Source: Acaryochloris marina MBIC11017 (GTDB lineage: Bacteria; Cyanobacteriota; Cyanobacteriia; Thermosynechococcales; Thermosynechococcaceae). Taken from it: 32,000 bases of DNA. Of the stretch, positions 1-28,589 are shown one piece after another (within the stretch, counting starts at the first letter, position 1; every line of letters starts with the position of its first letter). The stretch covers positions 60,001 through 92,000 of the forward strand of contig NC_009933.1 of NCBI RefSeq assembly GCF_000018105.1, given 5' to 3'. The position numbers and the translations under genes are program-made. The notes beneath the pieces are model-generated. The model made no database searches. It worked only from the letters and a program-made list of their open reading frames with translations, and had not been told where the DNA came from.

Positions 1-1373
1 AGCCATTCATCAAAATGGTTAACATCACCCACTACTGCAGAAAGAGTGATGAGCTGTATCTGAAAACCTCGCTGCTTGGCAGATAGAAGATATGTGAGCA
101 GAAGTTCCACGCTTATTCCACGAGTTGGATCCGTTATAAACTGAGCCTCATCAAGGACGACTAGACCAAGCTGATTAAGCACCCCAGTATTGCTCACAAC
201 CAAGTTCAGAAACATTTCGTAAGTCAGTAAGGCTAAATCGTATTTGCCTCGAACAAAGAGATCGGTTTGATCTACATAATCACCACAGCAGCGGATAACC
301 CGCATTCCGAGGCCATCACCATACACTTGAGAGAACTGCTCATATTTTTCATTTGTGAGCGCTCGGTATGGAAGTAAAAATACAGCCTTACGGCCTTCGC
401 ATATTGCCTGGATTGCAGCCAGCTCACCCACAAATGTTTTCCCCGAACCAGTGGGTGCGATCGCTAATAGTGATGAACCATCAAGAATTCGATAATCATT
501 GATCGCTTGAAGCTGGAGGTCATTCAGGGTGGGAAACTGCTTGGCCCACTGGTTCAAGATTGTTAGGGGAAGGCCAAACCCGGCTAATTCTTGAATATCA
601 GCATCTACTCTTAACCCCCCTTTTTGAGGGAACTTAGTATAGAAATGCGGCCCCGGTTTAATGGGTGGAAGAACCAGCCCTCCAGTAACATGGCCAAAGA
701 GGACCGGAGTTTGCGCGATTCTCATCTTAATCGCAACGCTTCTGGCCTTCTCAACGACCTGGGCACTCATTTCTACTAAATCAATGGTCGGGGATGTTGT
801 TTCTATGAACGTATCAATCAATGCCTTGGTGAGTAACCCATGCCCTTCACCAGGAACCTCATAAGCCTCTTCACTCTCCCTAGATGCCGCAAGTAATATT
901 CTTCCCTCTCCAGCCAAGGTAGAAACGGACATGCTGATGCTCCTTGATACTGGGATATCTCCTAAAACTTTTGCTGGTGCCCCTCCACTAAAACAACAGT
1001 CAAGGATAAACAGCACTGCTTTAGCTTGAGTTTCCCGAAAATAGTGTGCTAGCTCCTCCATCGGGATTGTGGTGTCTGCTGGATCAGTGCGGCTCGTGTC
1101 ATGAGCCACGATTTGATGATTGGAAGTACCATGCCCCGAGAAAGAAAGGATCACGGTATCGTCTGAAGTTGCCGCTCCCAAAGTGGACTGCAGCAGTTGA
1201 CGAATTCCATGTAAAGAAGCGTCCTTATCGGTGATGAGTTTTGCTTGAATGTCAGGGATGGAGTCACTGAACAAGGCCCACAGTGCCTCAGCATCTCGTC
1301 TAGCACCTGTCAATTCAGGAATTGTGATGTCTGCGAAGCGATCTACACCGATAAATCCAGCCAGAAGAGCCAT
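1..1373 (-). CDS. Caspase-like (peptidase C14) domain fused to an SF2 DEAD/DEAH-type helicase; the 5' part is in the window and the gene runs off the left edge
   Basis: It is missing from the ORF track only because it has no stop in the window. Minus-strand translation from ATG 1373-1371 gives MALLAGFIGVDRFADITIPELTGARRDAEALWALFSDS. Then DDTVILSFSGHGTSNHQIVAHD (His codon ~1131-1133) and AKAVLFILDCCFSGGAP (Cys codons 994-999), the caspase/metacaspase His-Cys dyad context. Then LLAIAPTGSGKTFVGE (helicase motif I, ~441-470) and LVVLDEAQFITDPTRG (motif II, ~141-160). The frame appears open to position 1. Confidence 0.75.
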   Translation of the reverse strand, partial: MALLAGFIGVDRFADITIPELTGARRDAEALWALFSDSIPDIQAKLITDKDASLHGIRQLLQSTLGAATSDDTVILSFSGHGTSNHQIVAHDTSRTDPADTTIPMEELAHYFRETQAKAVLFILDCCFSGGAPAKVLGDIPVSRSISMSVSTLAGEGRILLAASRESEEAYEVPGEGHGLLTKALIDTFIETTSPTIDLVEMSAQVVEKARSVAIKMRIAQTPVLFGHVTGGLVLPPIKPGPHFYTKFPQKGGLRVDADIQELAGFGLPLTILNQWAKQFPTLNDLQLQAINDYRILDGSSLLAIAPTGSGKTFVGELAAIQAICEGRKAVFLLPYRALTNEKYEQFSQVYGDGLGMRVIRCCGDYVDQTDLFVRGKYDLALLTYEMFLNLVVSNTGVLNQLGLVVLDEAQFITDPTRGISVELLLTYLLSAKQRGFQIQLITLSAVVGDVNHFDEW

Positions 1374-1804
1374 TTTGATGAACCAAGCAATGCGAACCTA
1401 TATATAGTAGTCAAAAATAATTTATTCTGCCTTCAAACACTATATATGGACTAAATAATTCTTGCTATCATCAAATCTGTCTCCTGTGACTAACTCCGGC
1501 ATAGCTCGCCGGAAACTCAGATTGATGGGAAATGGCAATCAGTATTTTTTTGCTTTTGATTCGAGCTGACACAGGCAAAGCCGGAATAACAGTCTGACTA
1601 TGGGTACCATATACCTGAAGTAACCCACTATTCTTTAATGCCCAGCCTTACCAAAGTCGCTGAACTCACTGAGATCGCAACCTCAACCCTTGGTGAGTTC
1701 GCAACTGTGAAGTCATGATTATGCAGCAAAATCAATGATGGAAACGTAACAGATATGCCTGCTTATGCTGCAACTCCGAGGGCAGTCATCACCGTGGGTT
1801 GCCA

Positions 1805-2212
1805 TTATTGTGAAGATACATATTTCATCCAAGCCTGAAGCAGTTCATCTTCAGATATACCTCTGAGTTGATCTGTGTGTTCCAGCATTGCAGCAATAGC
1901 AACCCGAATTAGTGTATTTTCTGTAATCCTCTCCCCAGAGTTTTTTCTGGCCCTATTGAGCTGCCTTGCAAGCATTGTCAATTGATCTAAGTGCTCTTGA
2001 GGTAAGCGAATCTCTTTTCGCTCCATTGTCAGATACTTTGGAACTTCGTTACTTACAGACTCAGGAAGTTCTTGAGTTCCTTTAGCTAGTTCTACCTGAT
2101 GGCTAGACACATAATTATCTTTGACTTCAGAACTTTGTGAGTTAGATTCTTTGGAACTAACAGAGTTCGTAAGTTCGTTACTTAGTAAATCTGTTATTTT
2201 GCGTTTAGCCAT
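1805..2212 (-). CDS. Small partition adaptor (ParG/ParB-like, possibly ribbon-helix-helix C-terminus), partner of ParA
   Basis: 135-aa ORF whose ATG overlaps the parA stop (TAATG at 2210-2214). It has a Ser/Glu-rich N-terminus and then a basic helical part, KEIRLPQEHLDQLTMLARQLNRARKNSGERITENTLIRVAIAAMLEH. The call rests on size, position and coupling to a small ParA, not on a strong motif. Confidence 0.5.
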   Translation of the reverse strand: MAKRKITDLLSNELTNSVSSKESNSQSSEVKDNYVSSHQVELAKGTQELPESVSNEVPKYLTMERKEIRLPQEHLDQLTMLARQLNRARKNSGERITENTLIRVAIAAMLEHTDQLRGISEDELLQAWMKYVSSQ

Positions 2213-2853
2213 TATTTTTGACCCTTCAACTCTCTTACAAGTTCATCAACCACTTTTCGATAGTCGTTTGCAGCTTCTTTCCCACCAGAACCTTTGTATT
2301 CAGTAATGAGTTTGCCATCTAGTATTGCCCTTTCATGAGCTACCAAATAGCGCACTACAGCGTTAAAAACTGGAATATCTTCATCCATTAGTTGTGACTG
2401 CATGTCTAGTGCCTCATTGATCCGACGACTATCTACACGCGAAAGCAATACACGGTAGGCAGTTTCTGAAGGAACTACCACTTGCCCAATAGTTCTAGTT
2501 AGCTCTCTAATATCTAACGGGGAAGGAGGTGATGGAAGTATCGCAAAATCAGAAAGCTTAAGAGTGATGGTCAGTGTCTCATTATCCAAGCCAGGAGGTG
2601 TGTCGCAGAGTATATAGTCATACCCACCTATTTTCCTTAGCTTAGATATGACATTGTGATCAGTTTCATGAGCCACATCAAATCCTGGTGATGCTCGATC
2701 ACTTATCCAAGACAAGCTACCCTGTGGGTCAGTGTCTATAACTAAAACCTTTGTCTTACGCTTTTTTGAGAGGAATGCTGCAACACTCAATGCCGTAGTT
2801 GTCTTACAGCTCCCCCCTTTTCCTGAAGCGATTGTGATGATTTGCATTACCAC
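2212..2853 (-). CDS. parA: ParA-family partition ATPase (small, type Ib-like)
   Basis: IASGKGGSCKTTTA is a deviant Walker A; VLVIDTDPQGS; YDYILCDTPPG is Walker B. 213 aa counted from GTG 2853; ATG at 2847 (MQIITIASGKGG) may be the real start. Confidence 0.9.
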   Translation of the reverse strand: MVMQIITIASGKGGSCKTTTALSVAAFLSKKRKTKVLVIDTDPQGSLSWISDRASPGFDVAHETDHNVISKLRKIGGYDYILCDTPPGLDNETLTITLKLSDFAILPSPPSPLDIRELTRTIGQVVVPSETAYRVLLSRVDSRRINEALDMQSQLMDEDIPVFNAVVRYLVAHERAILDGKLITEYKGSGGKEAANDYRKVVDELVRELKGQK

Positions 2854-2879
2854 CTAATTAAAGATACTTGCAGTTTTAC

Positions 2880-3635
2880 ATAAAGTCTGTAAGTTTGTAA
2901 CCCATAGAATTCCTGGCTTACAAACTTACAGACTTATAAGCCTTTGGACTATGCAGCAGATTGTATGTATCCATGCCTAGTCAATGATCTACAGACTTAC
3001 GAATTTACGAACTTCGGAACTTACTGAGATACTGAGTTGTAAACTTTGGAGACTACAAAGCATGTGACTTTGTTACCCACAAGTTTGTGAGCATATAAGA
3101 TACTAACTTATATAGTTACGAGCTTACAGACTTCCATAGTGACAAGCCTACAAATTTAAAAGCTGCCAGATATAAACAATCAACTTACGAGTTTACTGAC
3201 TTTGAAAGTAACAAACTTACAGAGTTGCTGATTTACAGAGAATATAGCTCAGGTATCTATAAACAAGCACAAGCTTTACTCATTTCAATCAAACAAACGA
3301 AGTTACGAACTTACGGACTAACATAGTTACGAGCTTAAAAAGTTAAAAACTGTCAGACAGAAACAACCAACATACTGATTTTCAGGCTTTGGAGACAACT
3401 AGCTTACAGAGTTCGTAACTCTGATACCTGTAAACTTATGTACTTAGTTAGTTACAGAGTTACTAACTTACGGAGTCTTGAACTTTACACACTACAATCT
3501 AAGGAAGTTACGGACTTACAGACTAATCTAGCTACAGACTTACAAAGTTTTTAACCATCAGCTATGAACAACCAGCAAACAGACTTACGGACTCCGAAAA
3601 TAACAGACTTACAGAATATCAAGCTTACGAAATAT
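2880..3635. repeat. Degenerate iteron-like repeat array (CTTAC[AG] core); candidate centromere and/or origin
   Basis: About 750 bp with no credible ORF, lying upstream of parA. Exact CTTAC[AG] starts at 2917, 2925, 2996, 3123, 3184, 3216, 3310, 3403, 3467, 3515, 3539, 3584, 3608 and 3624. GTTAC[AG]/TTTAC[AG] variants start at 3004, 3115, 3232, 3302, 3326, 3451 and 3507. The extended form ACAGACTTAC starts at 2991, 3534, 3579 and 3603. A ~22-nt motif (ctgccagatataaacaatcaac / ctgtcagacagaaacaaccaac / ccatcagctatgaacaaccagc) starts at 3163, 3350 and 3555, giving a ~190-205 bp super-period. Confidence 0.75.
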
Positions 3636-3637
3636 TT

Positions 3638-3680
3638 CTCACCCCTAGACCCAAGCTACCCGCTCTCGATCCAGGTATAT
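3638..3680 (-). repeat. Short terminal fragment of the dispersed X-gene 3' end (copy F)
   Basis: tctcacccctagacccaagctacccgctctcgatccaggtat closely resembles the 3' end of copy D (21786-21830, attcaccccctacactttgccacccgctcccgatccaggtat). Only about the last 13 codons are present. Confidence 0.4.
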
Positions 3681-3685
3681 GCATA

Positions 3686-3721
3686 CTGTCTTTTCAATTA
3701 ACTCTGTCTTTTCAATTAACT
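3686..3721. repeat. Perfect tandem duplication of an 18-bp unit
   Basis: ctgtcttttcaattaact occurs at 3686-3703 and again at 3704-3721. It lies between the iteron-like array and the stop of the ParB-like gene. Confidence 0.9.
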
Positions 3722-3783
3722 GGGCTTAATCATAGAGTTATACCTAGGAACGGTAAACCTCAACAAGAGCAATTACAAACAGG

Positions 3784-4704
3784 TTAAGCAGTCAATAAAT
3801 CAACAAGCTCAGCCTTCTTGATACCCTTTGGTACTGTAATTTCTCGCTGTATAGCCTCTTTTTTCAGATCAGAAACTTTCATCTGTTCGAGTAGATACCG
3901 CACATTATTAAGATAAGGTGGAGCGCATGGCTTCAAATGAAGTATCTGATCTAGTCCTTTAAGCTTTGAAGGAGTTAAACCACACTTCAGTTTGGTCAAA
4001 GGCTTGTAATCATGCCAATAGAGACGTTCTTTAGATGAAAAAATAGCACTGGCAAGCTTTGTAAGATTTACATCTACTAACTTACACTGAGGTAAACACG
4101 CTGCTGTCTCAAAGGCTTCTAATAACTCAGCTTCTGATGCAGTATTTAAAATGATTGGGTTTATTTCAATGGGTAAAGGAGCTGCATCAAACACTTCTGA
4201 TAATACTTGAAGCTTACTCTTCGTAAGACCACACTTAAGCTTCGTCAAAGGTGTGAGCGAAGACCATCCCCGCCGGCCAGCAGCCTGGTAAATTCGATCT
4301 GCTACTAGTGCAATGTCTAACTTACCTAATTTTCCACGCAGATGCTGTAACGCAGCAAAAATCATGTCATACTCAGCGCTACAGATATTGATTGTGAGAG
4401 GTATTTGACCAGTTAATAGCTTCACTTGTTCTTCCGCTGAAGCATCTTCTGGAACAACAGCAACCCATACATACTCTTGTCCAGCAGCTTCCATTGCTAG
4501 AAGAATATGCTCATTACTTATCGCCTGATATTGTCGAGGTTCCGGTTCTTGCACTATTACTGGGATCCAATTTCGTAAATCTGGCTCCTGCAATATTGAG
4601 GAAAGTGCTGCAATCTGAAAACCGGACCCCTGTGATTCATCAGAAACTTGGACTTGTTCAATAGGTACTTGAATAAGCTGTCCAATATCTTTAAGGCTTA
4701 ACAT
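3784..4704 (-). CDS. ParB/Srx-like N-domain protein with an internal duplicated motif and a Rho_N/SAP-like C-terminus
   Basis: 306-aa ORF whose ATG overlaps the stop of the upstream ParA-type gene (TAATG 4702-4706). IPVIVQEPEPRQYQAISNEHILLAMEAAGQEYVWVAVV has the layout of ParB N-domains but lacks the GERR arginine patch. There are two copies of PLTKLKCGLT.SKL (nt ~4190-4260 and ~3936-4008). The C-terminal KKAELVDLLTA is Rho_N/SAP-like. Confidence 0.4.
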   Translation of the reverse strand: MLSLKDIGQLIQVPIEQVQVSDESQGSGFQIAALSSILQEPDLRNWIPVIVQEPEPRQYQAISNEHILLAMEAAGQEYVWVAVVPEDASAEEQVKLLTGQIPLTINICSAEYDMIFAALQHLRGKLGKLDIALVADRIYQAAGRRGWSSLTPLTKLKCGLTKSKLQVLSEVFDAAPLPIEINPIILNTASEAELLEAFETAACLPQCKLVDVNLTKLASAIFSSKERLYWHDYKPLTKLKCGLTPSKLKGLDQILHLKPCAPPYLNNVRYLLEQMKVSDLKKEAIQREITVPKGIKKAELVDLLTA

Positions 4705-6092
4705 TAGAGCAATACCTCCCGAATCAGATGTTCATAAACCTGCTTAGCACGCCGATATCTCAATGGGGCAGGAACATATTTGGGGCCTTCCAATGGGGCA
4801 CGACAAATCTCAATTTTGTATGGCAATTCAAAGCAGTGTTGACCTCTTCTAAATCTTTTTGGTGGCATATAAAAGAAGTTATTAAAAGCATCTTTCCACT
4901 CATTGTTCTTTGCAACTATATCTGCTAAATATCTATAACAGTTTCGGGCTTGTGCATCAGTATGCTGATATTGGTTAAGCACAAGGGGAAGTAAGTTCGG
5001 CCCTCCTTCCTCAAGAGCAGCCCGCCTCTGATTAACTTGAGGGATGAAATTGGTTACTAGAGCTTCTAAATTCCTGAGAGATGCACGGTCAATATGACTA
5101 GCTGGGACTAACAAGGTGTCAGACGCCTGAACACCTGCTTGGGCAAACCATCTCCAATTGGGCGGCATATCAATCAGAATATAGTCATAGTCTTTTGATA
5201 ATTCTTTTAGGCGATTTCTAAGAAACTCAAGACGAATTTCTTGCTGAATTTTTACATCATGTGACTCTAGAAAGCTTTTATCAGCAGGTATAAGGTCAAA
5301 TTGTACCTGTTGTTTTCCTTGGCTGAAAGAACAATGCTGAATAATGGCTTTACCGGGTACTTTTCCTTTTAAGAAATTCCATACTTTCCCTTCAACAACT
5401 GGTTGTTGAAGGGAATCCGTAAGATCTGCTTGGTTAGGATCGAAGTCAACTAGCAAAACCTTTTTCTGACTTTGTGCTAGAACAATACCCAAATTAGTGG
5501 TAAGAGTAGTTTTCCCAATTCCACCTTTGTTGTTGTAGACACCAATAATGATTCCACGCTTATCTTCTTGAAGAATTCTCAATAAGCAGTTTGAAACTTC
5601 CTGAGCGTTTTGAGTATTTAACGAAAGAATAGATGTTGCAGGGTGAACAACCTTGTGAAATCGCTTAAATAGTTGTAATTCCCAACCGTTAGATATTAAT
5701 CCAAAGTGAGCACTCATTGCATTGTTACCAAGCAGTTGCTCTTTCAATTGTGCAAAGGCTTTCCAGTAATGAGGGCTGTTAAGAGACAGTTGTTGGCCTG
5801 TTGATTTCAGCTCAACCAGTAAAAAGGGATCTTTTTGTTGCTGAAAGAAATTATTGCCTTCTTTATCTGGGTAACGGCAAGCGATATCAGATTTTCGTGA
5901 TGGGCTTGAATTAGCCTTGAATTGTGGGACTCGATCAAGCTGTCCAAACTCAAGAGTTACCAGTAGCTTCTCTATGATAGGGGTTACAACATTACCTTCA
6001 TCTCCAGACCCTCTAACTGTTGGTCTTGAATCTAGCTGTAATTTCAATTCTGCTAGTGCATGTTCACTGATCTTTGGCATTAATTTAAGCAT
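4704..6092 (-). CDS. Fusion of an HsdR_N-type PD-(D/E)xK-like domain to a ParA/MinD-family ATPase
   Basis: 462 aa. The N-terminal ~150 aa read VVTPIIEKLL..LEFGQL...KSDIACRY...DPFLLVELKS...AFAQLKEQL...GLISNGWELQLF. This matches the D...ExK, Q-L and NG-x-E pattern of type I restriction HsdR N-terminal folds. The C-terminal half has VYNNKGGIGKTTLTTNLG (deviant Walker A), LLVDFDPNQ and YDYILIDMPP (Walker B). Confidence 0.65.
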   Translation of the reverse strand: MLKLMPKISEHALAELKLQLDSRPTVRGSGDEGNVVTPIIEKLLVTLEFGQLDRVPQFKANSSPSRKSDIACRYPDKEGNNFFQQQKDPFLLVELKSTGQQLSLNSPHYWKAFAQLKEQLLGNNAMSAHFGLISNGWELQLFKRFHKVVHPATSILSLNTQNAQEVSNCLLRILQEDKRGIIIGVYNNKGGIGKTTLTTNLGIVLAQSQKKVLLVDFDPNQADLTDSLQQPVVEGKVWNFLKGKVPGKAIIQHCSFSQGKQQVQFDLIPADKSFLESHDVKIQQEIRLEFLRNRLKELSKDYDYILIDMPPNWRWFAQAGVQASDTLLVPASHIDRASLRNLEALVTNFIPQVNQRRAALEEGGPNLLPLVLNQYQHTDAQARNCYRYLADIVAKNNEWKDAFNNFFYMPPKRFRRGQHCFELPYKIEICRAPLEGPKYVPAPLRYRRAKQVYEHLIREVLL

Positions 6093-6483
6093 TCCCTGAA
6101 AAATCGATTATTTCCGCTGCTCGAATTGAAATAATTTTCTGAGTTAGCTACAACAAACCATGCACAAAATTTAAATATTTGAAATTTGAGATGGATTATT
6201 TTTTAGTGCTTTAAAAATTATGCCCAGTAAAGAATACTTATTCATACACTCAATTAACTTTGTATAGCTAAGTACCTTTGGACGATTGTGGGAAGGTAAA
6301 GATGATCTGCTTGAGGCACGAAGAAATAAAGTATCAAAGCTTAAGTCATGTCAAAGCCTAAATCGATTCCAACCTTTCGCTTAAATGCCCGTATAGTAAA
6401 GGTTATAATCAACATCGACTAAAACTTGTCATTTTTTTAAAGGGGTTTGCAAGCTACTCAATAGCGACTTACACAACAACCAG

Positions 6484-6790
6484 TCACCCCCAAACCATAC
6501 TCACCCGCTCCCGATCCAACTACACCCCGATCATCTCCTCGATCCGCTCAATGGTTTCCCCTGGCCGCAGACTTAAAACCTGCAACACGTCGAATGTGTA
6601 CTCCAATTCAAGGGTGTACTCGAAACAAAATTCAGGCGTTGCAAATGAAATTTTGATGAATGGCTTACTACTGCCTTCGACGGTGATCCATTAATTCCCT
6701 GAGCTGCTTCGGGACACCGTGAGATACTCAAGTTGACCCTTTTGCCTGATCTGCTGAACCAAGTTCTTTGTTTGTCATCAAGCTCAATGA
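6484..6790 (-). pseudogene. Decayed copy (A) of the small gene X
   Basis: Minus-strand translation is collinear with the intact copy at 17485-18123: QTKNLVQQIRQKGQLEYLTVSRSSSGN*WITVEGSSKPFIKISFATPEFCFEYTLELEYTFDVLQVLSLRPGETIERIEEMIGV*LDRERVSMVWG*. It has two in-frame stops. Upstream of it the frame is broken by further stops. Confidence 0.7.
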
Positions 6791-7120: not shown

Positions 7121-8857
7121 GTGCCTAACAAAAGAATTGATTCCTATCATACTCGTGTTTATATGAACGGAAGAGACCTCGGCTTAAAACAAGCTGATGC
7201 AGCTTACATTGCCGAAATATCTACAAGAACCGGACAACGAATTGAGGCCGGCACCCATCAACCTAATCGCGGCCGCCTTCAGGACCAACGCACCGTTCCC
7301 GACCCCTTAGCTGATGTGTGGGAAGACGAGCTAGAACCAATGCTGCGTCGAGACCCACGCCTCAAACCCATGACCCTGTATGAGTACCTGCAGGATAAGT
7401 ATCCAGGCCAGTATCCCCAAGTCCTGCGGACCCTACAACGTCGGGTGAGAACGTGGAAAGCCTTACATGGACCAAGCCCTGAAGTGATGTTTGAATTGCG
7501 TCATGAACCAGGGGTACAAGGGTTCTCCGATTTTACAGAACTCAAAGGCATCACGATTACCATTGCCGGCAAACCCTTTGAGCACCTGATTTACCATTAC
7601 CGTCTGGGATACAGCGGCTGGCGATATGCCCAGATCATCGAAGGAGGCGAAAGCTTTGTCGCCCTCTCAGAAGGATTGCAAAATGCCTTTGCAGCCTGTG
7701 GAGGTGTTCCTACACAGCATCGTACTGATAGTTTGAGTGCAGCCTATCGCAACATGGGCGGCCGCCGGTCCAAAAACCTCACTCGTCTGTACGACGAACT
7801 GTGTGACCACTATCGGCTAGAACCCACTCGTAACAACAAAGGTGTAGCCCATGAGAATGGCTCCATTGAATCTCCCCATGGTCATCTGAAGAACCGAATT
7901 AAGCAGGCGATCTATCTGCGCGGCAGTGCAGATTTTACGAGCGTTGCTGAGTATCAAGCCTTAATTGATGCACAGGTTGCCAAGTTGAATCAGCAGTGCC
8001 AAACCAAGTATGAGCAAGAGAAAGACCATCTACAACCACTGCCCAAATATCGAACCCCTGACTATGAAGTGCTCACGGCTAAAGTCAGCAAACGCAGCAC
8101 CATCGATGTTCGCTGCATTCTATACACCGTCCCTTCTCGACTGATTGGTCGTCAATTGGAACTGCATCTATACCATGACCGGATTGTCGGCTATCTGGAG
8201 CGACACCCGGTGGTGGAATTGCCGAGGAAGCGCGTCAGTGGCAAAGGCAAACGTCGCGACCGTTGCATCAACTATCGCCATGTTATTGGTTCAATGCGAT
8301 TGAAGCCTCGTGCTTTTATCTATTGCACCTGGCAATCAGACCTACTTCCCAATCCTGAATACCGCCAAATCTGGGAACAGCTCAAAGCCCAATTTGACCT
8401 GGAGCAGGCTGCCAAGATCATCGTGGAAGCCCTGTATATTGCTGCGGTTCAAGATAAAGAACAGGCCGTAGCAGTGTACTTACAGCAGCAGCTTCGCTCA
8501 TCCAGCCTTACCCTCAATCGCCTGAAAAAACAGTTTGAGCCGCCTCAGATGAAGCAGGTTCCTGAACTCAGCATTGAACAACATTCACTTGAACTTTATG
8601 ACAAACTCCTCCCCTCCTGCTCAGTCCCCGCTGAGCCCCTACCAGCACCTGAGCCTCTATTTAAAAAAGCTCAGGCTCTCCCACATGTTGACCCATTGGG
8701 AATCTATCGAATCCCAAGCCATGCAGGAAAACTGGTCTTATGCGGAATTCTTACTAGCCTTGTGCGAAACGGAGGCCCAACGAAGAGAACAAGCTCGTCT
8801 AAAACGTGCCCTCACCGAAGCCAGGCTCCCAAACGCAAAAAGTTTTACCAACTTTGA
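7121..8857 (+). CDS. istA: IS21-family transposase IstA
   Basis: 578-aa ORF (GTG start) with a DDE integrase-type core (FSDFTELKG..., HRTDSLSAAYRN, GVAHENGSIESPHGHLKN) and the typical C-terminal EQHSLELYDKLL region. The ORF then continues ~86 codons into istB in another frame. Confidence 0.85.
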   Translation: MPNKRIDSYHTRVYMNGRDLGLKQADAAYIAEISTRTGQRIEAGTHQPNRGRLQDQRTVPDPLADVWEDELEPMLRRDPRLKPMTLYEYLQDKYPGQYPQVLRTLQRRVRTWKALHGPSPEVMFELRHEPGVQGFSDFTELKGITITIAGKPFEHLIYHYRLGYSGWRYAQIIEGGESFVALSEGLQNAFAACGGVPTQHRTDSLSAAYRNMGGRRSKNLTRLYDELCDHYRLEPTRNNKGVAHENGSIESPHGHLKNRIKQAIYLRGSADFTSVAEYQALIDAQVAKLNQQCQTKYEQEKDHLQPLPKYRTPDYEVLTAKVSKRSTIDVRCILYTVPSRLIGRQLELHLYHDRIVGYLERHPVVELPRKRVSGKGKRRDRCINYRHVIGSMRLKPRAFIYCTWQSDLLPNPEYRQIWEQLKAQFDLEQAAKIIVEALYIAAVQDKEQAVAVYLQQQLRSSSLTLNRLKKQFEPPQMKQVPELSIEQHSLELYDKLLPSCSVPAEPLPAPEPLFKKAQALPHVDPLGIYRIPSHAGKLVLCGILTSLVRNGGPTKRTSSSKTCPHRSQAPKRKKFYQL

Positions 8858-9416
8858 CTTTAGCCATTGTCCCCAGCTCAATCCAGCTCCCTTGATGCAA
8901 TTAGCCGCAGATCCGGGTTGGTTGGAGCGCGCCGAGAATTGCCTTATTCTGGGGCCCTCGGGTGTTGGAAAAACACATCTGGCCACTGGGGTGTCCAAAA
9001 AGATGCTGGAATTCGGTAAGCGGGTGAAGTTCTTTGCAGCCAACGCATTGGTCCAGCAACTGCAACAGGCGAAGCTCCAACTGCAGCTGCATCCAATGCT
9101 CAAAAAACTGGACCGCTATGATCTGTTGATCTTGGATGACTTGGGCTATTGCAAAAAGTCGGAAGCGGAAACGTCCGTTCTGTTTGAATTAATTGCGCAT
9201 CGCTATGAACGAAAAAGTTTGTTGATTACAGCGAATCAACCCTTCAGCCAATGGGATGACATTTTCACTGATTCGATGATGGCGGTGGCTGCCATTGATC
9301 GCTTAATTCATCATGGCTTGATTATCGAAATTCAAGCCGATAGTTATCGGCGCAAATCAGCGACTCAGAGAACGGCTCAAACTCAGTCTCAACCTCAAAA
9401 ATCCCAGTCCAAATAA
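8598..9416 (+). CDS. istB: IS21-family helper ATPase IstB
   Basis: LILGPSGVGKTHLATG is Walker A and DLLILDDLGY is Walker B. The N-terminal region SYAEFLLALCETEAQRREQARLKRALTEARLP..KSFTNFDF is typical of IstB. ATG 8598 is preferred over the TTG at 8574 listed in the track. Confidence 0.9.
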   Translation: MTNSSPPAQSPLSPYQHLSLYLKKLRLSHMLTHWESIESQAMQENWSYAEFLLALCETEAQRREQARLKRALTEARLPNAKSFTNFDFSHCPQLNPAPLMQLAADPGWLERAENCLILGPSGVGKTHLATGVSKKMLEFGKRVKFFAANALVQQLQQAKLQLQLHPMLKKLDRYDLLILDDLGYCKKSEAETSVLFELIAHRYERKSLLITANQPFSQWDDIFTDSMMAVAAIDRLIHHGLIIEIQADSYRRKSATQRTAQTQSQPQKSQSK

Positions 9417-10934: not shown

Positions 10935-13025
10935 TCAAGAGCCTTCAGCATCTATCCATCCCCTAACTGTCTCAATGGGTATTCCGATGGGTGCAAACAA
11001 AACTTTCAGAGTCTCTACTCCTCCCTCCTTCAAGGCATTCTGTAAACGCTGCCGAAAAGTTGGATCTATCTTTATTCTCTGCTCAACCACAGTCTGTATA
11101 TCTGTCGGATTAGTTTTCTGCAACTGACTCAGTAAATCCTGAATTTCTTTTGCCGATTCAGCCGGGGTTTGTTTTATTTCTGGAGCGTAGTTGTGTTGAG
11201 TGGTTTGTTGAATTCCCTCATTTACTCCAGCCACATTCCCAACTGGAGCATTGATGTTTTGAGTAACTTTATCTTTGTTTGCCATGGTCTGGACCATTGA
11301 AAGTAACTGGGCATTTTTTTGGCGTTCAAAAGCTAGAGATTCTTTTGCTAAATCTAATGTTGCACCTTGGAGCTTCATTTTCTCAATAAATTGTTCTTCA
11401 AGAACCTTTAGTTGTTTACCATATAACTCTTTAGCTTTAGTTTCTATCGCACTCTTGTTAGCCTCAGGTGGTGCCTCCAGTCGAACAACAAAGGCTGCGC
11501 CTTTCTTTTCAATAGCTTGAATGCCAACCTCATATTCATTGAACTTGGATCGGAGTAGCTGAAAAGACTGAAAAAAGGCTTGCCAGTCAATACCATCAAC
11601 AAAAATAAGATCAATCGTTTCAAGAGACTTCTGGACTAAAGCAACAAATTCACCTGGGCAGAAGTTTCCTTGGAAGGGGCGACGTTCTTCTTGATTTACT
11701 TTGAGATAGATGTAATCACACACCACACCTTCAAAGCCAGTCTTAGAATTAATACTCCAATCCTGAATACAAGCCCCTGTCAATATTGCATTTTGAAGTT
11801 TGCTGCCCAGGAAATTTGCTCGGTAAAGATTTGAGTTTCTAAGGTTAACACCACTGAGGTTAGCATCATTAAGGTCGGTACCACTGAGGTCTTTTCCTTC
11901 CCCACCTTTATTTACCAATTCGTGAACCAACTTCCATTTAGCGTCAATCTTTGTTTCAGCAGAAATTTTGGTATTCCTGAGGTCGGCACCACTGAGGTCG
12001 GCATCACTGAGGTTGGCATCACTGAGGTCGGCACCACTGAGGTCGGCATCACTGAGGTCGGCACCACTGAGGTCGGCACCACTGAGGTCGGTACCACTGA
12101 GATCTTTTCCTTCCCCACCTTTATTTACCAATTCGTGAACCAACTTCCATTTAGCGTCAATCTTTGTTTCAGCAGAAATTTTGGTATTCCTGAGGTCGGC
12201 ATCACTGAGGTCGGCATCACTGAGGTCGGTACCACTGAGGTTGGTATCACTGAGGTCGGTACCACTGAGGTCGGCATCACTGAGGTCGGCACCACTGAGG
12301 TTGGCATCACTGAGGTCGGTACCACTGAGGTTGGCATCACTGAGGTCGGTACCACTGAGGTTGGCATCACTGAGGTCGGTACTACTGAGGTCTTTTCCTT
12401 CCCCACCTTTATTTACCAATTCGTGAACCAACTTCCATTTAGCGTCAATCTTTGTTTCAGCAGAAATTTTGGTATTCCTGAGGTTGGTATTCCTGAGGTC
12501 GGCATCACTGAGGTCGGCATCACTGAGGTCGGCACCACTGAGGTCGGCATCACTGAGGTCGGCATCACTGAGGTTGGCACCACTGAGGTCGGTACCACTG
12601 AGGTCTTTTCCTTCCCCACCTTTATTTACCAATTCGTGAACCAACTTCCATTTAGCATCAATCTTTGTTGCAGCAGAAATTTTGGTATTCCTGAGGTCGG
12701 CACCACTGAGGTCGGCATCACTGAGGTTGGCACCATTGAGGGCGGCACCAATGAGGGCGGCACCAATGAGGGCGGCACCAATGAGGGTAGCACCCCTGAG
12801 GTCGGCATAAATGAGGGTAGCACCCCTGAGGTCGGCATAAGTGAGGTTGGCATCCCAGAGGTTGGCACCACTGAGGGTAGCACCCCCGAGGTCGGCACCA
12901 CTGAGGTTGGCACCCCCGAGGTCGGCACCCCAGAGGTATATAGACTCACCTGTATTCTTTTCTCTCCATTGATTCCAAGCCTCAGCACCCTGCTTCAATA
13001 AATCAACTTGTTCTTGATTAGCCAT
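10935..13025 (-). CDS. Pentapeptide-repeat protein P1 with four-fold higher-order repeats and a conserved post-repeat domain
   Basis: N-cap MANQEQVDLLKQGAEAWNQWREKN (ATG 13025; GTG 13028 also possible). Long runs of A(D/N)LS(D/G) units are interrupted four times by RNTKISAETKIDAKWKLVHELVNKGGEGKDL. The shared domain follows: GACIQDWSIN...VVCDYIYL...ERRP...PGEFVALVQKSLETIDLIFVDGIDWQAFFQSFQLLRSKF...IQAIEKKGAAFVVRLE. After it come a coiled coil and a tail ending APIGIPIETVRGWIDAEGS. Confidence 0.9.
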   Translation of the reverse strand: MANQEQVDLLKQGAEAWNQWREKNTGESIYLWGADLGGANLSGADLGGATLSGANLWDANLTYADLRGATLIYADLRGATLIGAALIGAALIGAALNGANLSDADLSGADLRNTKISAATKIDAKWKLVHELVNKGGEGKDLSGTDLSGANLSDADLSDADLSGADLSDADLSDADLRNTNLRNTKISAETKIDAKWKLVHELVNKGGEGKDLSSTDLSDANLSGTDLSDANLSGTDLSDANLSGADLSDADLSGTDLSDTNLSGTDLSDADLSDADLRNTKISAETKIDAKWKLVHELVNKGGEGKDLSGTDLSGADLSGADLSDADLSGADLSDANLSDADLSGADLRNTKISAETKIDAKWKLVHELVNKGGEGKDLSGTDLNDANLSGVNLRNSNLYRANFLGSKLQNAILTGACIQDWSINSKTGFEGVVCDYIYLKVNQEERRPFQGNFCPGEFVALVQKSLETIDLIFVDGIDWQAFFQSFQLLRSKFNEYEVGIQAIEKKGAAFVVRLEAPPEANKSAIETKAKELYGKQLKVLEEQFIEKMKLQGATLDLAKESLAFERQKNAQLLSMVQTMANKDKVTQNINAPVGNVAGVNEGIQQTTQHNYAPEIKQTPAESAKEIQDLLSQLQKTNPTDIQTVVEQRIKIDPTFRQRLQNALKEGGVETLKVLFAPIGIPIETVRGWIDAEGS
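11891..12697. repeat. Intragenic higher-order repeat: four 93-nt linker modules separating blocks of 15-nt pentapeptide units
   Basis: The 93-nt module cttttccttccccacctttatttaccaattcgtgaaccaacttccatttagcgtcaatctttgtttcagcagaaattttggtattcctgaggt is identical at 11891-11983, 12104-12196 and 12392-12484. At 12605-12697 it carries 2 substitutions. The intervening blocks are exactly 120, 195 and 120 nt (8, 13 and 8 units of 15 nt). Confidence 0.95.
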
Positions 13026-13138
13026 CACACTCTCAAGACATTCCTGGATCAGTCAATACCACTCAGCTCATTTACCAAACTGATGAATGATACCCACATA
13101 TTCTGAATTGTACTAGCCCCAAAAAGATAGAATCCTGG

Positions 13139-13986: not shown

Positions 13987-16900
13987 ATGAAATCTATCAA
14001 GGGATTTTGGCTTTTTCTGGACACTGCTATAAAAGATATCCCTTGGGGAGATGTAGCCCTGCACGGTATTGAAGCCATGAAGGCGTTGCCGGATGCTTCA
14101 AAAGCTTGGCAAGACAATGCTGATAAGATTCAACAGCTTGCCCCTTTTGTGCAAAAGGCAGAACCACTGATCAAAGCCCTTGATATTCCAGTGACAAAGT
14201 TGGTTATTTCTGGGCTGCCATTTATATCTGCTGGCATTAACTTGCTGAAAATTGGGATTGAACTGGCAAAAGTGGAGTCAACTTTCGAAAGTTCAGTCAC
14301 AATTGTCGCCCAACTCGCCTATCTCCAGAGTTTAGAAATAGTGTTGGTGAAACAGGATGAGACGATCAAAGCGAAACTAGCGCAGCTATCTCTCAAGGAT
14401 GTTGTCGAGAAACAGCTTTCCAAATTTTATAGAACGGAACTGACCCTCACTGAGGCAAAGACAGCCACTACCCAGTTTCGAGAGTCCATATTAGTCGAGA
14501 AGTTTGGAGAAGCACTGACAGAGCAGTTGCAACAGGTCGGGCTGGACAACAGCCAAACTCAGCGATTAACAGATCAGGTTATTTGGGGGAGTCATCGGTA
14601 TTTCCATCTGGCGATTGTAGAAGCTGGGGAGAGTGTAGAACCTCTAGCAGAGTTTTACCGTACTGGTGGACAGCAAGAGCTAGAACGCTACACAGCTATC
14701 GACGAGTATTTAGAAACGCAGATTAAACCAACACCGCTGGAGCAAGTCTTTGATGAGAGTGCCCCCAGAGTAAGCTTTCAAGATATCTACGTACAACTGG
14801 AGGTGCAGCCTTTAACTCAAGAAGGTGAGGTAAAACGTGGTGCTAGCCCCATCTGTAGTCATGAATGGACCAAGAAAATCCTAGAACAGTCAGCCAACCA
14901 GACCCGCAAAGTGATGTTTATGGAAGGTGAAGCAGGTCGGGGTAAATCCGTATTTTGTCGCATGATTGCTGATTGGGTGTATTCGGAATTTGGAGATGCT
15001 TTTATTCCCTTGCGGATTAGGCTGCGAGACTTACGGGCACTAGCTAACAACTTAACTGAAACTCTAGAAGACTGCCCAGATTTAGAGCAGGCAAAATTCG
15101 TGCGTGGGGAATCAAACTGGTTAGCGGATAAAAACACGCGATTTTTCCTTATTTTGGATGGCTTTGACGAAATACTGCTTGAAGGGCGTACCAGCGGAGG
15201 TTTAAAAGAGTTTTTGCAGCAGGTGACAGATTTTCAGCGACGTAGCCATCATCAGTTGTTAGTAACAGGACGACCCTTAGCACTGCAAGGAATCGATAGA
15301 CTTATCACCCAAAACAAGGACTTGGAACGGGTGCGTCTGAAACCTATGAGTGATGAGTTGAGAGAACTCTGGCTGATAAAATGGCAAGCCATATTTGGAA
15401 CGAATCAGGTCAATCAATTCCGGCAGTTTCTGACGGCCTGTCCTCAAGACATCACTGATACTCTGGCCCGTGAGCCGCTACTGCTCTATTTGCTGGCTCG
15501 GCTGAATCGCGAGGGGCATCTGACCCAAGAGATGTTTGCAGATACACAAAAGGGCTTCAATAGCGAAACTCAGGCCAAGCTGCAGATTTATCGGGAATCG
15601 GTGAATTGGGTACTAAAGAAACAGCGGCAGGATGAGAACTTACGGCTTTCAGGGTTGGACACCTTGGATGATTTACGGGAGGTATTACAGGAAGCAGCTT
15701 TGTGTGTGGTGCAGTCGGGGAATGAAACGGCTCGACTGGAAATGGTGAAACAGCGGTTTAAAGGCAGCAGCAACCCTGTAGCTGACTTGCTGAAGCAAGC
15801 CCAAGAAACCACTGGGCAATCAGAAAATAAGGCACTAAACAACTTACTGACAACCTTTTATCTAAAGCCGGGCGAAAAAGATAAACGAGGTTCAGTGGAA
15901 TTTGCCCACAAGAGCTTTGGGGAATATTTATTCGCAGAGCGATTACTGATCGCCTTTGAAACGTGGACAGAGTTAGATAAACGAAAACGGTTCCGGCTAG
16001 ATGAACGATCACTGAATGAGCAAATTTACGATGTATTTGGCCATGGCGGCCTGACTCAAGAAATTGTCGCCTACGTGATGGTGCTACTTGAGGAGGGTAA
16101 CATTGACCGTTTACAGCTGTTCACACGACTCAGTCATTTCTATGACCGCTGGTGCCAAAATGAGTTTTTAGATGCTCTTCCACATGAGAATATTCCGCAG
16201 AAGAAAATGATACAACTTCTGGATCAGGATATCACTACCGGATTAAAGCAAGTGGATGTATTTACGGGCTTAAATGCGATGATTTTTCTGTTTAGGCTAC
16301 ATGCATCTACCCAGCCCAAGGACTATCCCTATCTTGGAGACGATACATCTCAACACGAAATCTATTTTTACCCCTGTGGTAAACCTGAGCCTGAAGGCTT
16401 GCAAGCAGACCGTCTTCTCAAAATCATTCGTTACGCAGATTCACTCGTACCAGGGATTTTTAACGAAACCGTTGGACCTTACCTAAGCAGCGCCAACCTC
16501 AGCAGCGCCAACCTCAGCTTCGCCGACCTCAGCAGCGCCAACCTCAGCTTCGCCGACCTCAGCTTCGCCGACCTTACCAACACCGACCTCCTCAGCGCCA
16601 ACCTCAACGGCGCCGACCTCCGCAACGCCAATCTCAACAACGCTGACCTTCGCAGCGCCGACCTCAACAGCGCCAACCTCAACGGCGCCGACCTCCGCGA
16701 TGCCAATCTCAACAGCGCTAACCTCAGCAGCGCCAACCTCAGCTTCGCCGACCTCAGCTTTGCCAACCTCAGCTTTGCCAACCTCAGCTTCGCCGACCTC
16801 AGCAGCTCCAACCTCAGCCGAGCCCTGGTTTCTGACTTAACACAGATCGATTATGAGTGGCTATCAGGTTCTAATGATGAATATCTTATTGTTCTTAGAA

Positions 16901-17475
16901 CTCATCAAAACTTTAATATAAGAATTTTCGATTCAGATATAAACTCTAATGATCTTTCCCAACTTCAAACTGCATTAGATGAATTTACTAAAATCTCTGG
17001 GTATGAAGAAGTAACTGTAACACGAGAAGAATTAGGTTCCTTCTTCAAGGATATTCGATATAAAATCGCCCGATTGTTTTATGATGATGTGCAAAGAGAA
17101 GCAATAGAAACAGGACAAGAGCTTTATCGCACAGGTAAAGCGAATATCTTAACTCGATTGGAGTGGAAAGGAGTTGAATCTTCCAAACAACTGGCTGAAG
17201 CAACAGCTGCATTATTGGAAAATGTTGATAAATTCGACAATGTTGTTTTACAAGCTGGGAAAATTATCGTAGTAAAAATTACTGATGAAAATGGGAAATC
17301 AACCCTTTGTTCAAGAACCGTTTCTTCAGAGATTAAATTCCTACTAGAACGAACCCCTCAACTGATAGATAATCCCCAAGCTTTATACGATTTGCTGACT
17401 AAGAACCCAGAACAACTACAACCAAGCATTGAGAATCGGACGACTTTACCAGCTCCCTCCGAACCCCTCAAGTAA
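13987..17475 (+). CDS. NACHT-family STAND NTPase with an N-terminal helical domain, a pentapeptide-repeat array and an extra C-terminal domain
   Basis: Walker [13 protein letters not shown] (GEAGRGKS at nt 14926-14949). Walker [12 protein letters not shown] (about 15143-15172). LLVTGRP (sensor-1-like) and [12 protein letters not shown], all as in NACHT modules. The ~300-aa N-terminal helical region has a hydrophobic stretch, [23 protein letters not shown]. There are 22 pentapeptide units at 16486-16815, then about 215 aa of AT-rich unique sequence. Confidence 0.85.
16486..16815 (+). repeat. 22 in-register 15-nt units encoding the NACHT pentapeptide array
   Basis: agcagcgccaacctc and agcttcgccgacctc type units run from 16486 to 16815 (330 nt) with no indel. 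Several units are identical, for example 16486-16500, 16501-16515 and 16531-16545. The segment is markedly more GC-rich than the flanking coding sequence. Confidence 0.95.
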
Positions 17476-17484
17476 CTCCCGTGA

Positions 17485-18123
17485 TCACCCCCAGGACATG
17501 GCCACTCGCTCCCGATCCAACCACACCCCGATCATCTCCTCGATCCGCTCCATAGTTTCCCCTGGCCGCAGCTTGATTACCTGCAACACATCGAACGTGT
17601 CCTCCAACTCCAAGGCGCACTCATAGCAAAACTCGGGCGTTTCAAACGGAATTGTGATGAATGGCTTACCAGTAATTTCCACGGTGATCCAGAATTTCCC
17701 TGAATTGCTTATGGAAACGGTCAGATATTCAAGCTGACCCTTCTGCTTGGTCTGCTGAACCAGATTCTTTTGTCTGCGCTCAAGTGCGTGAAACTTAGAC
17801 TCAAATGCTCTGGAGACTCTGGGGGGTCTGACTCTTCCTGGTGTTTCCCGAGCTGTATATCCTCGCTGTGTTCTCCGCACAAAATCGGGTTCTCGGTGAA
17901 TGTGGATAGGGGCTGATTCACGCTTGCGCTCATCTGTACCAACATCTGGAGATGGCTTGCGTCTTACTGGCTGATCATCTTTCCTGGCAATCGTTGGGAA
18001 CGCAGTCTTGTCTGAATATGCAGGGTTTGATTCGATGTTTATTGGGGGTTTCCCAGTCGATGAGATTGTTGGCTTGGGCTTCAGTGAGACAAGTTTGGGG
18101 TTCATACAACTATCCTCTGCCAA
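17485..18123 (-). CDS. Gene X, the only intact copy: low-complexity N-terminus plus a conserved ~95-aa C-terminal domain; function unknown
   Basis: 212-aa ORF (TTG 18123; ATG alternative at 18105). The C-terminal part is FHALERRQKNLVQQTKQKGQLEYLTVSISNSGKFWITVEITGKPFITIPFETPEFCYECALELEDTFDVLQVIKLRPGETMERIEEMIGVWLDRERVAMSWG. That part recurs in decayed form at five other sites. The gene is convergent with the NACHT gene (stops 10 nt apart). Confidence 0.7.
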   Translation of the reverse strand: MAEDSCMNPKLVSLKPKPTISSTGKPPINIESNPAYSDKTAFPTIARKDDQPVRRKPSPDVGTDERKRESAPIHIHREPDFVRRTQRGYTARETPGRVRPPRVSRAFESKFHALERRQKNLVQQTKQKGQLEYLTVSISNSGKFWITVEITGKPFITIPFETPEFCYECALELEDTFDVLQVIKLRPGETMERIEEMIGVWLDRERVAMSWG

Positions 18124-18234
18124 GATAAAATCAGTGTAGCTTCTGGGGATATGCTCTGGTGGATTTCAGGGGAAAGCTTAATTTGGGGGTAGGTGATTTA
18201 CAGTGGGGAAACTAGAGGTAAAGATTATGCTGCG

Positions 18235-28434: not shown

Positions 28435-28589
28435 TGATGGCCTCCTTGATGATGCATAGATATATGAGTCGATTTCCAAACCATTAGCAGTTCGGGGAAT
28501 AAAAATGTAGAAATCATTGAAAGTCCCTCTATCAGTTGTCCGTAGCGAGATAGAGAGGTGTGGCTAGGTTAATTTAAATTACAAAATTC

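Follow-up and report, generated by a model that had tools for sequence, protein, structure and literature searches.

The first 1,373 positions of the 32,000-nucleotide stretch of Acaryochloris marina MBIC11017 analysed here (contig NC_009933.1, positions 60,001 to 92,000; the whole stretch is called the window below) carry the beginning of a gene in which a caspase-like protease is fused to a complete Hel308-type helicase. The full protein has 1007 amino acids (aa), keeps the catalytic residues of both enzymes, and belongs to a family that is spread over bacterial phyla. We propose that it is a single-gene conflict protein, directed against phages or other mobile elements in the manner of abortive infection, in which DNA sensing by the helicase would license an Arg/Lys-specific protease; we regard this proposal as evenly poised between right and wrong.

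A caspase domain and a Hel308-type helicase in one chain

In the window, the minus-strand open reading frame (ORF) of the fusion starts with an ATG at positions 1373-1371 and stays open to position 3, which gives the first 457 of 1007 codons (3..1373). The other 550 codons, past the window start, were read from L001, a contig of 8724 bp from a Logan assembly that is 100% identical to window positions 1-6583 and reaches 2141 bp past the window start. The neighbouring 135-aa ORF is recorded on 14 public contigs, and L001, the longest of them, completed the fusion gene as a single uninterrupted ORF (L001:5211-8234). An earlier note on this DNA, made from its letters alone, had stated that the gene continues beyond the window, and it does; neither a stop nor a frameshift separates the caspase from the helicase in the completed ORF.

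The same note had placed a caspase-like protease N-terminal to a helicase of superfamily 2 (SF2), and this arrangement was confirmed. All four motifs it had quoted are present in the translation: SFSGHG at residues 77-82 with His81 (window 1131-1133), LDCCFSGG at residues 124-131 with Cys127 (993-995), the Walker A motif APTGSGKT at residues 306-313 (435-458), and motif II, (L)DEAQ, at residues 408-411 (141-152), each on the minus strand. Pfam Peptidase_C14 (PF00656) matched residues 5-226 (E 4.8e-14, 53 bits against a cutoff of 21.4) and Pfam DEAD matched residues 286-449 (E 1.9e-24); since these scores lie far past chance, the pairing of Peptidase_C14 and DEAD motifs is not accidental. The caspase domain (residues 5-226; 696..1361, minus strand) is followed by a short structured connector (residues 227-254; 612..695, minus strand), which has a conserved G241 and F248-P249 in two family alignments, with F248 invariant, and which was modelled with a predicted local distance difference test score (pLDDT) of 82-90. 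The ~90-aa linker of the earlier description is therefore reduced to about 30 residues, with Hel308 homology from about residue 255-280. The RecA1 lobe of the helicase (residues 255-457; 3..611, minus strand), recognised by Pfam DEAD, the Hel308 alignment, NCBIfam and Foldseek, takes up the rest of the window-encoded part, and its other four domains (RecA2, winged helix, ratchet and a helix-hairpin-helix (HhH)-like domain at the C-terminus) are encoded outside the window.

The fold of the N-terminal domain was examined with an AlphaFold2 (AF2) model of the window-encoded residues 1-260 (pLDDT 89.3; predicted template modelling score, pTM, 0.89). Foldseek matched the model best to MALT1 (E 1.6e-12, TMq 0.63-0.68) and further to caspase-7/9/6, CED-3, the bacterial GSU0716 and the yeast metacaspase Yca1, which confirmed that the domain has the caspase-hemoglobinase fold. 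By sequence, a profile of 43 family members found plant metacaspases 4 and 9, Trypanosoma MCA2 and Yca1, and the NCBIfam model 'caspase, EACC1-associated type' (NF047832) scored 91.8 bits, below its cutoff of 140. The domain is thus like metacaspases, orthocaspases and MALT1 in its fold, its dyad motifs and its predicted Arg/Lys pocket, and unlike them in that it is fused to a helicase, is compact (~225 residues), and has a sequence identity to them of just 12-18%.

Conservation was assessed in a closer set of 121 sequences (mean column identity 64%) and in a deep alignment of 63 long cluster representatives, 60 of which have the caspase domain. His81 and Cys127, in their G-H-G and D-x-C-x-S/A-G contexts, are invariant in the 121 close homologues, and H81, C127, D27 and D125 are kept in 60/60 caspase-bearing deep representatives, down to 28% identity; the dyad context, earlier described as intact, is intact across the family. 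In the profile match Asp27 falls on the Asp of C-x-x-D, a metacaspase motif, and Asp125 stands two residues ahead of the catalytic Cys127. Because D27 and, presumably, D125 correspond to the positions that line the S1 pocket of Arg/Lys-specific metacaspases, cleavage after Arg or Lys is the likely specificity, with the two residues as putative S1-pocket aspartates. The sole poorly modelled stretch of the domain is a loop at about residues 129-150, directly after the catalytic Cys, which in caspases and metacaspases is a frequent site of self-processing; R135 and R144 in this loop are near-invariant in the close clade.

For the helicase, residues 280-998 of the fusion aligned with residues 28-703 of the 715 residues of Sulfolobus Hel308 (2va8; E 1e-54), and the next matches were Pyrococcus Hjm, Archaeoglobus Hel308 and the helicase-like domain of DNA polymerase theta (Pol-theta). 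Beyond DEAD, Pfam gave only a weak Helicase_dom4_arc match on the remaining helicase. NCBIfam models of archaeal Hel308 span the helicase from end to end at scores below their equivalog cutoffs (NF040935, 250.8 against 1200 bits), and NF002654 likewise reached 308 bits against an equivalog cutoff of 887. For the full-length structure we used the AlphaFold model of a 78%-identical homologue, P0121 (mean pLDDT 87.9, pTM 0.85), which superposed in Foldseek on Hel308/Hjm structures with target-normalised TM scores of 0.82-0.87. With two RecA lobes (RecA1 and RecA2), a winged helix, a ratchet and a C-terminal HhH-like domain, the helicase has all five domains of a Hel308/Ski2-like module and is no generic DEAD-box protein; the architecture given in the earlier note is borne out, and its helicase is sharpened to a complete Hel308-type (Ski2-like) SF2 helicase. 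Judged by its sequence, it is Hel308-like without being an orthologue of archaeal Hel308.

Lys312, Asp408 and Glu409, together with the motif VI arginines R655 and R658, are kept in 63/63 long representatives. In our reading, the C-terminal 750 residues are a predicted 3'-to-5' DNA helicase. With archaeal Hel308/Hjm and the Pol-theta helicase-like domain it has in common the end-to-end alignment, the five-domain fold and intact SF2 motifs; it differs from archaeal Hel308/Hjm in that the window protein is bacterial, horizontally spread, often plasmid-borne, and extended by a 250-residue N-terminal protease. Hel308 proper has been described as missing from bacteria (PMC12278908). Since the dyad and the ATPase residues are invariant, both enzymes, the caspase and the helicase, are under strong purifying selection.

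Spread, relatives and neighbourhoods of the family

The full-length protein as query found 1401 clusters at 90% identity with E<=1e-20, and the best 120 of these were all 996-1045 aa long, 54-78% identical, and identical in Pfam composition. A HMMER search of 1.84 billion cluster representatives gave 1119 matches below 1e-30, and among the top 150 were about 60 full-length representatives with the caspase-helicase architecture, down to 28% identity. The closest named homologue comes from a cyanobacterial metagenome-assembled genome. All naming sources label the family members 'DEAD/DEAH box helicase' or similar, and NCBIfam has no model specific for the caspase-Hel308 family.

The ~1000-aa architecture was found in at least ten bacterial phyla. 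Homologues of 50-60% identity come from Cyanobacteria, Acidobacteriota, Planctomycetota, Gemmatimonadota, Bacillota (Ferroacidibacillus), Nitrospirota, Bacteroidota (Hymenobacter, Fibrella, Chondrinema) and Alpha-, Beta- and Gammaproteobacteria, and copies in Actinomycetota (Streptomyces) are 33% identical. Homologues are present on 16 plasmids of PLSDB, and many family copies lie on contigs that measure hundreds of kb or even Mb and are presumably chromosomal. The cross-phylum identity of 50-60% and the presence on these plasmids point to horizontal spread with a patchy distribution. A phage origin of the fusion gene was rejected, as the Hel308-like helicases in viral and phage collections are all without a caspase. 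Five shortened homologues (P0003, P0077, P0086, P0111 and P0120), 340-630 aa long and on contigs of 175 kb-7 Mb, have tails that are apparently out of frame; these may be frameshifted pseudogenes or may reflect a word-search bias from the 457-aa query. Frameshifted homologues would fit the expectation for a costly gene.

Directly below the fusion family in the HMMER search are caspase-less Hel308-like proteins of ~900-950 aa, 29-33% identical to the window protein over the helicase. Their homology starts at query residue ~259, which is the end of the caspase and connector, and they carry ~180 additional C-terminal residues. In P0351, Pfam Mrr_cat, which has a restriction-endonuclease fold, matched this extension end to end with a score barely past its cutoff (22 against 21 bits, E 1.9e-4), and extensions of this type are common to 13 other cluster representatives (14 in total, including P0342, P0370 and P0343). 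Another relative, P0281, has an unrelated N-terminal domain of 243 aa that matched no family, and P0380 has a C-terminal HATPase_c domain. Because the domains on the caspase-less relatives are swapped, the helicase is one chassis with interchangeable effector-type domains, as is characteristic of modular immune proteins. The Mrr-bearing sister family is like the window protein in its Hel308-like chassis and in having helicase and effector in one gene; it differs in that its effector is a C-terminal restriction-endonuclease-fold domain, and not an N-terminal caspase. Its architecture recalls single-gene helicase-nuclease defence proteins such as Hna.

We compared the surroundings of the fusion in 84 loci, with five genes on each side, crude ORF calls and all-against-all BLAST; for this context an alignment-based metagenome scan supplied 80 loci, and a single-protein scan of genome contigs gave 3. 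No gene was conserved beside the fusion at any flanking position in the 84 loci, and for this reason the functional unit is probably a single gene, with sensor and effector in one chain. The largest neighbour clusters span just 8 loci of one subclade; this pair of genes looks AbiE-like from a reading of the sequences alone. Other clusters can be recognised as parts of a Qat system, with KAP NTPase, QatB-like and QueC-like genes.

Among 135 immediate neighbours that were scanned, the families were mixed and none occurred in more than 3-4 loci. The Pfam matches included AAA_21, Mrr_cat, SMC_N, phage integrase, Peptidase_M78, NYN, AbiJ and LexA, and the PADLOC matches were capP, mad3, PDC-S54, RmrA, PDC-S32, AriA, Ppl, QatA, QatC, PDC-S02 and HamA1. 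At other loci the context consists of DruA with PhD/ParE and an NB-ARC protein, of XamI restriction-modification with NYN, of an ABC-three-component system, of Tn3, PLD and Fic/VbhA, or of multiubiquitin/ThiF with a UvrD-like protein. This pattern fits a stand-alone gene that moves in defence islands and on mobile elements.

In the window, the genes directly upstream of the fusion are a 135-aa ORF (1805-2212, minus strand; no Pfam family match) and a ParA-type ATPase (2212-2847, minus strand; Pfam CbiA/VirC1/ParA). The Fibrella plasmid CP155472 (L096 6920-11006) likewise has a ParA gene and a small ORF directly upstream of the fusion on the same strand, and it has a gene for prokaryotic Argonaute (pAgo, Piwi) and a helicase downstream. 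The two ParA proteins are 29% identical and the small ORFs are unrelated. The 78%-identical homologue adjoins a topoisomerase (and an HU-like protein) instead of par genes, and the partition genes are no conserved part of the unit. A unit that includes ParA and the small ORF was accordingly rejected, the proteins being unrelated or only generically similar and absent beside the closest homologue. On three other plasmids, from Manganitrophus, Bradyrhizobium and Hymenobacter sublimis, the fusion lies within ~4-6 kb of rep/par genes (loci L092, L094 and L095).

A separate clade, 35-37% identical to the window protein, is found on a Rhodopseudomonas plasmid (L098 7390-11102) and a Bosea plasmid (L099 7388-11105). 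Directly upstream of the fusion, both have a gene for a 201-aa protein that is 70% identical between the two plasmids and has no Pfam match. Two TIR genes and a caspase-family gene lie within 1-6 kb as separate units, an arrangement that resembles type IV Thoeris. In H. tibetensis, another caspase gene lies 2 kb from the fusion. On two Hymenobacter plasmids (L091 6829-7743 and L094 10160-11074), a gene for an RNase_T-type exonuclease with a BRCT domain follows ~117 bp downstream of the fusion on the same strand, and it was not seen downstream of the fusion elsewhere.

A proposed DNA-licensed protease and competing readings

The proposal of a conflict protein draws on the patchy cross-phylum spread, the lack of a conserved partner, the defence and mobile genes among the neighbours, and the swapping of effectors in the sister families. 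The trigger, the coupling of the domains, the cleavage specificity and the outcome, which we infer, would be as follows. The Hel308-like helicase would load on abnormal DNA and hydrolyse ATP as the sensor step, with 3' single-stranded tails, forks, replication or recombination intermediates of an invader, and damaged DNA as candidate triggers. Engagement of DNA would relieve an inhibition of the N-terminal caspase-like domain, either through a conformational change or through dimerisation that depends on DNA, and the loop behind the catalytic Cys might be self-cleaved in the process. For MALT1 and initiator caspases, proximity is what triggers activation, and structures of the Pol-theta helicase domain are dimers and tetramers, going by the titles of the matched structure entries. 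The freed protease would then cut after Arg or Lys in many host proteins, and possibly in invader proteins, and such broad proteolysis would halt the growth of the infected cell and abort the infection. Where the earlier note had a nucleic-acid-sensing helicase drive a death protease, the fusion architecture and the two intact enzymes stand, and the functional part is the best reading of circumstantial evidence, which comes from distribution, the lack of a conserved partner, neighbours and effector swapping.

Several described defence systems resemble the fusion in one of its halves, and in our reading the protein would combine helicase gating of an effector, as in Hachiman, with an executioner like that of type IV Thoeris. 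In Hachiman, the Hel308-like HamB is a DNA-integrity sensor that surveys DNA and frees the HamA nuclease on damaged or aberrant DNA (PMC12278908), and in its variant HamMAB, DNA sensing, ATP hydrolysis and oligomerisation activate a protease that matures a nuclease (PMC12799240). The likeness lies in the Ski2/Hel308-like helicase, which there is a DNA-integrity sensor controlling an effector. In contrast to Hachiman, the window gene has no HamA/DUF1837 partner and its effector is fused to the helicase, and while the effectors of Hachiman and HamMAB are a PD-(D/E)xK nuclease or a trypsin-like protease, that of the window protein is a caspase-fold cysteine protease. The window helicase is also much closer to archaeal Hel308 than to the solved HamB (8vx9), which matched at E 9.5e-16 over the RecA lobes only. 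Membership in Hachiman was rejected, as there is no HamA (DUF1837) beside the window gene and a HamA1 match in only 1 of the 135 neighbours.

On the protease side, both the caspase of type IV Thoeris and the PCaspase of type III-B CRISPR are promiscuous executioners with Arg specificity which, once activated, break down EF-Tu along with many further proteins (bioRxiv 10.1101/2024.10.24.620036). They are like the window protein in the caspase fold, the dyad and the predicted acidic-pocket logic. The difference lies in the switch, since they are turned on by N7-cyclic ADP-ribose (N7-cADPR) or by an operon-encoded upstream protease and the presumed switch of the window protein is the attached helicase, its unit having neither a TIR nor a CHAT partner. 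Membership in type IV Thoeris was rejected because no TIR gene lies beside the window gene or is found in the 84 loci. Canu (CanABC) is also a phage defence with a caspase-family protease, which needs a separate pro-nuclease and a third protein (PMC12799240); the window gene, unlike Canu, has no conserved partners. Membership in Canu was likewise rejected, since there are no conserved neighbours and the metallo-beta-lactamase (MBL)-fold pro-nuclease and CanB families are not among the top neighbour families.

Several points weigh against the proposed conflict function. We found no functional or structural study of a caspase-helicase or caspase-Hel308 protein in the literature. No PADLOC model covers the family as such: the best matches are partial helicase matches to PDC-M23B and HamB and a match to a generic caspase model. 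PDC-M23B, the best, reached 113 bits with its best stretch only at query 496-699 against positions 538-737 of a 1060-position model, and the HamB models matched the helicase at E 2e-31 to 1e-25, mostly over the RecA lobes. Of the loop residues proposed for self-cleavage, neither is more than partly kept in the deep alignment (R/K135 in 39/63 and R/K144 in 27/63 representatives). The link to defence islands is qualitative, as ~15 of the 135 neighbours match PADLOC (E<=1e-10) without a background control. Finally, archaeal and eukaryotic Hel308 are repair helicases, which keeps a repair role in play.

An alternative that we consider unlikely is that the gene serves the mobile element on which it travels, either by stabilising a plasmid through the killing of plasmid-free cells or by excluding rivals through the sensing of conjugative single-stranded DNA. 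The shared order of ParA, small ORF and fusion in the window and in Fibrella, the rep/par genes close to the fusion on three more plasmids, and the 16 PLSDB plasmids would all suit such a role. However, the ParA proteins and small ORFs of the two loci are as dissimilar as described above, the 78%-identical homologue has no adjoining par genes, many copies are presumably chromosomal, and the statistic on rep/par proximity is post hoc and from a small sample.

It is rather improbable that the fusion is part of a multi-gene pathway with unlinked or clade-variable partners, in which, for example, the caspase would process another caspase, a pro-nuclease or a pore former. Protease cascades of this kind are known, as in SAVED-CHAT -> PCaspase (cited in bioRxiv 10.1101/2024.10.24.620036) and in the pro-nuclease activation of Canu and HamMAB (PMC12799240), and within the family the 35-37%-identity clade with its conserved 201-aa upstream partner and nearby TIR and caspase genes, as well as the second caspase gene in H. 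tibetensis, could be read in this way. The clade of the window protein has no such gene conserved at any flank of the 84 loci, and no partner candidate lies beside the window gene.

We also think it improbable, to a similar or greater degree, that the protein acts in DNA repair or replication rescue, with the Hel308-like motor working at stalled forks and the protease clearing DNA-protein crosslinks or roadblocks, a logic like that of eukaryotic helicase-assisted proteolysis by SPRTN. The helicase is indeed closest to repair helicases, namely Hel308 and the helicase domain of Pol-theta, and not to HamB, and a few neighbours are of repair type (LexA at 2 loci, UvrD, MutL_C, RadC, a topoisomerase, an HU-like protein, and the exonuclease-BRCT gene of the two Hymenobacter plasmids). 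Against this, the family has a patchy, horizontally acquired distribution that extends to plasmids, no synteny with repair operons is seen, and defence and mobile genes dominate the neighbourhoods; moreover, caspase-type proteases that cut promiscuously at basic residues are known as executioners in bacteria (bioRxiv 10.1101/2024.10.24.620036). It is most improbable of all that the caspase domain is a non-catalytic regulatory or scaffold module of an ordinary helicase, for although catalytically dead caspase homologues exist in other systems (PMC3501461), the family shows no variation in the dyad, in the GHG and D-x-C-x-S/A-G motifs or in the pocket aspartates.

Returning to the single-gene conflict protein, we put forward a narrower form of it more tentatively: possibly, a Hel308/Pol-theta-type helicase was captured by bacterial mobile elements and directly licenses a MALT1-like paracaspase on invader or damaged DNA, by changing conformation or dimerising on that DNA, with no adaptor, second messenger or partner. 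The domain combination itself has been counted before, as a domain census of 2012 listed helicase activity among the linked domains of 12 of 671 putative bacterial metacaspases (PMC3501461). Beyond this census we found no described caspase-helicase fusion system, so that the earlier statement that such fusions are typical of prokaryotic conflict systems was too strong. The census counted the combination without studying it, and the caspase-Hel308 family is widespread and uncharacterised.

If the proposal holds, the family would be a large, unnamed group of single-gene immune proteins, whose top 150 representatives include ~60 clusters at 50% identity, and thousands of genes called 'DEAD/DEAH box helicase' would gain a meaningful name. 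A sensor and an executioner in one chain would be a conceptual bacterial counterpart of the helicase-CARD sensors that feed caspases. The covalently attached DNA motor would be a new switch for bacterial caspases, as opposed to a small molecule or an upstream protease, the sensing of genome integrity would extend from Hachiman to a different helicase lineage, and Hel308-like helicases would be at work in bacteria. Being compact and strongly conserved, and having good models, the family would be attractive for structural and mechanistic work.

Other features of the window

The fusion gene is preceded by an intergenic region of 431 bp (1374..1804, minus strand), the presumed promoter/operator, in which a repeat finder detected a 9-nt inverted repeat without mismatch (ATATATAGT / ACTATATAT; arms 1400-1408 and 1439-1447), as well as a direct repeat of 23 nt (1415-1437 / 1453-1475). 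These repeats, at window positions 1398-1475, lie 25-100 nt upstream of the start codon of the fusion and may be an operator. Promoter and terminator scans around the fusion gene gave nothing above shuffled controls. The G+C content of the fusion gene is about 46-47%, against ~39-42% in the adjacent par region, and is within the range of the window.

The earlier note had also placed the gene on a plasmid, next to partition genes. The ParA gene and the small ORF are indeed directly upstream, and a plasmid location of the window is plausible. No recognisable replication gene was found among the window proteins, and a megablast search of window positions 1-6500 against PLSDB gave no near-identical match. 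Further upstream, a second ParA-like ATPase of 462 aa, with an N-terminal extension of ~180 residues, overlaps by one base with a 306-aa ORF that matched no family (3784-6092 for both, minus strand). An IS21-type element follows on the plus strand (7121-9416), in which a 578-aa transposase-like ORF with a Mu-transposase C-terminal domain overlaps an IstB-like ATPase.

The remainder of the window is rich in pentapeptide repeats, which, like the origin of the closest named homologue, gives the sequence a cyanobacterial look. A STAND NTPase of the NNH3-NACHT type, 1162 aa long and with C-terminal pentapeptide repeats, is encoded at 13987-17475 (plus strand), and four further pentapeptide-repeat proteins are encoded at 10935-13028 (minus), 18193-19758 (plus), 19838-21112 (minus) and 22960-24513 (minus). 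This NNH3-NACHT-pentapeptide region could be another conflict-type locus in the window. A 1266-aa ORF without a Pfam match lies at 24679-28479 (minus strand). A repeat of ~100 bp occurs at 6484-6583 and again, in the same orientation and with 86% identity, at 17485-17584, and it may be the end of an insertion sequence or a small mobile repeat.

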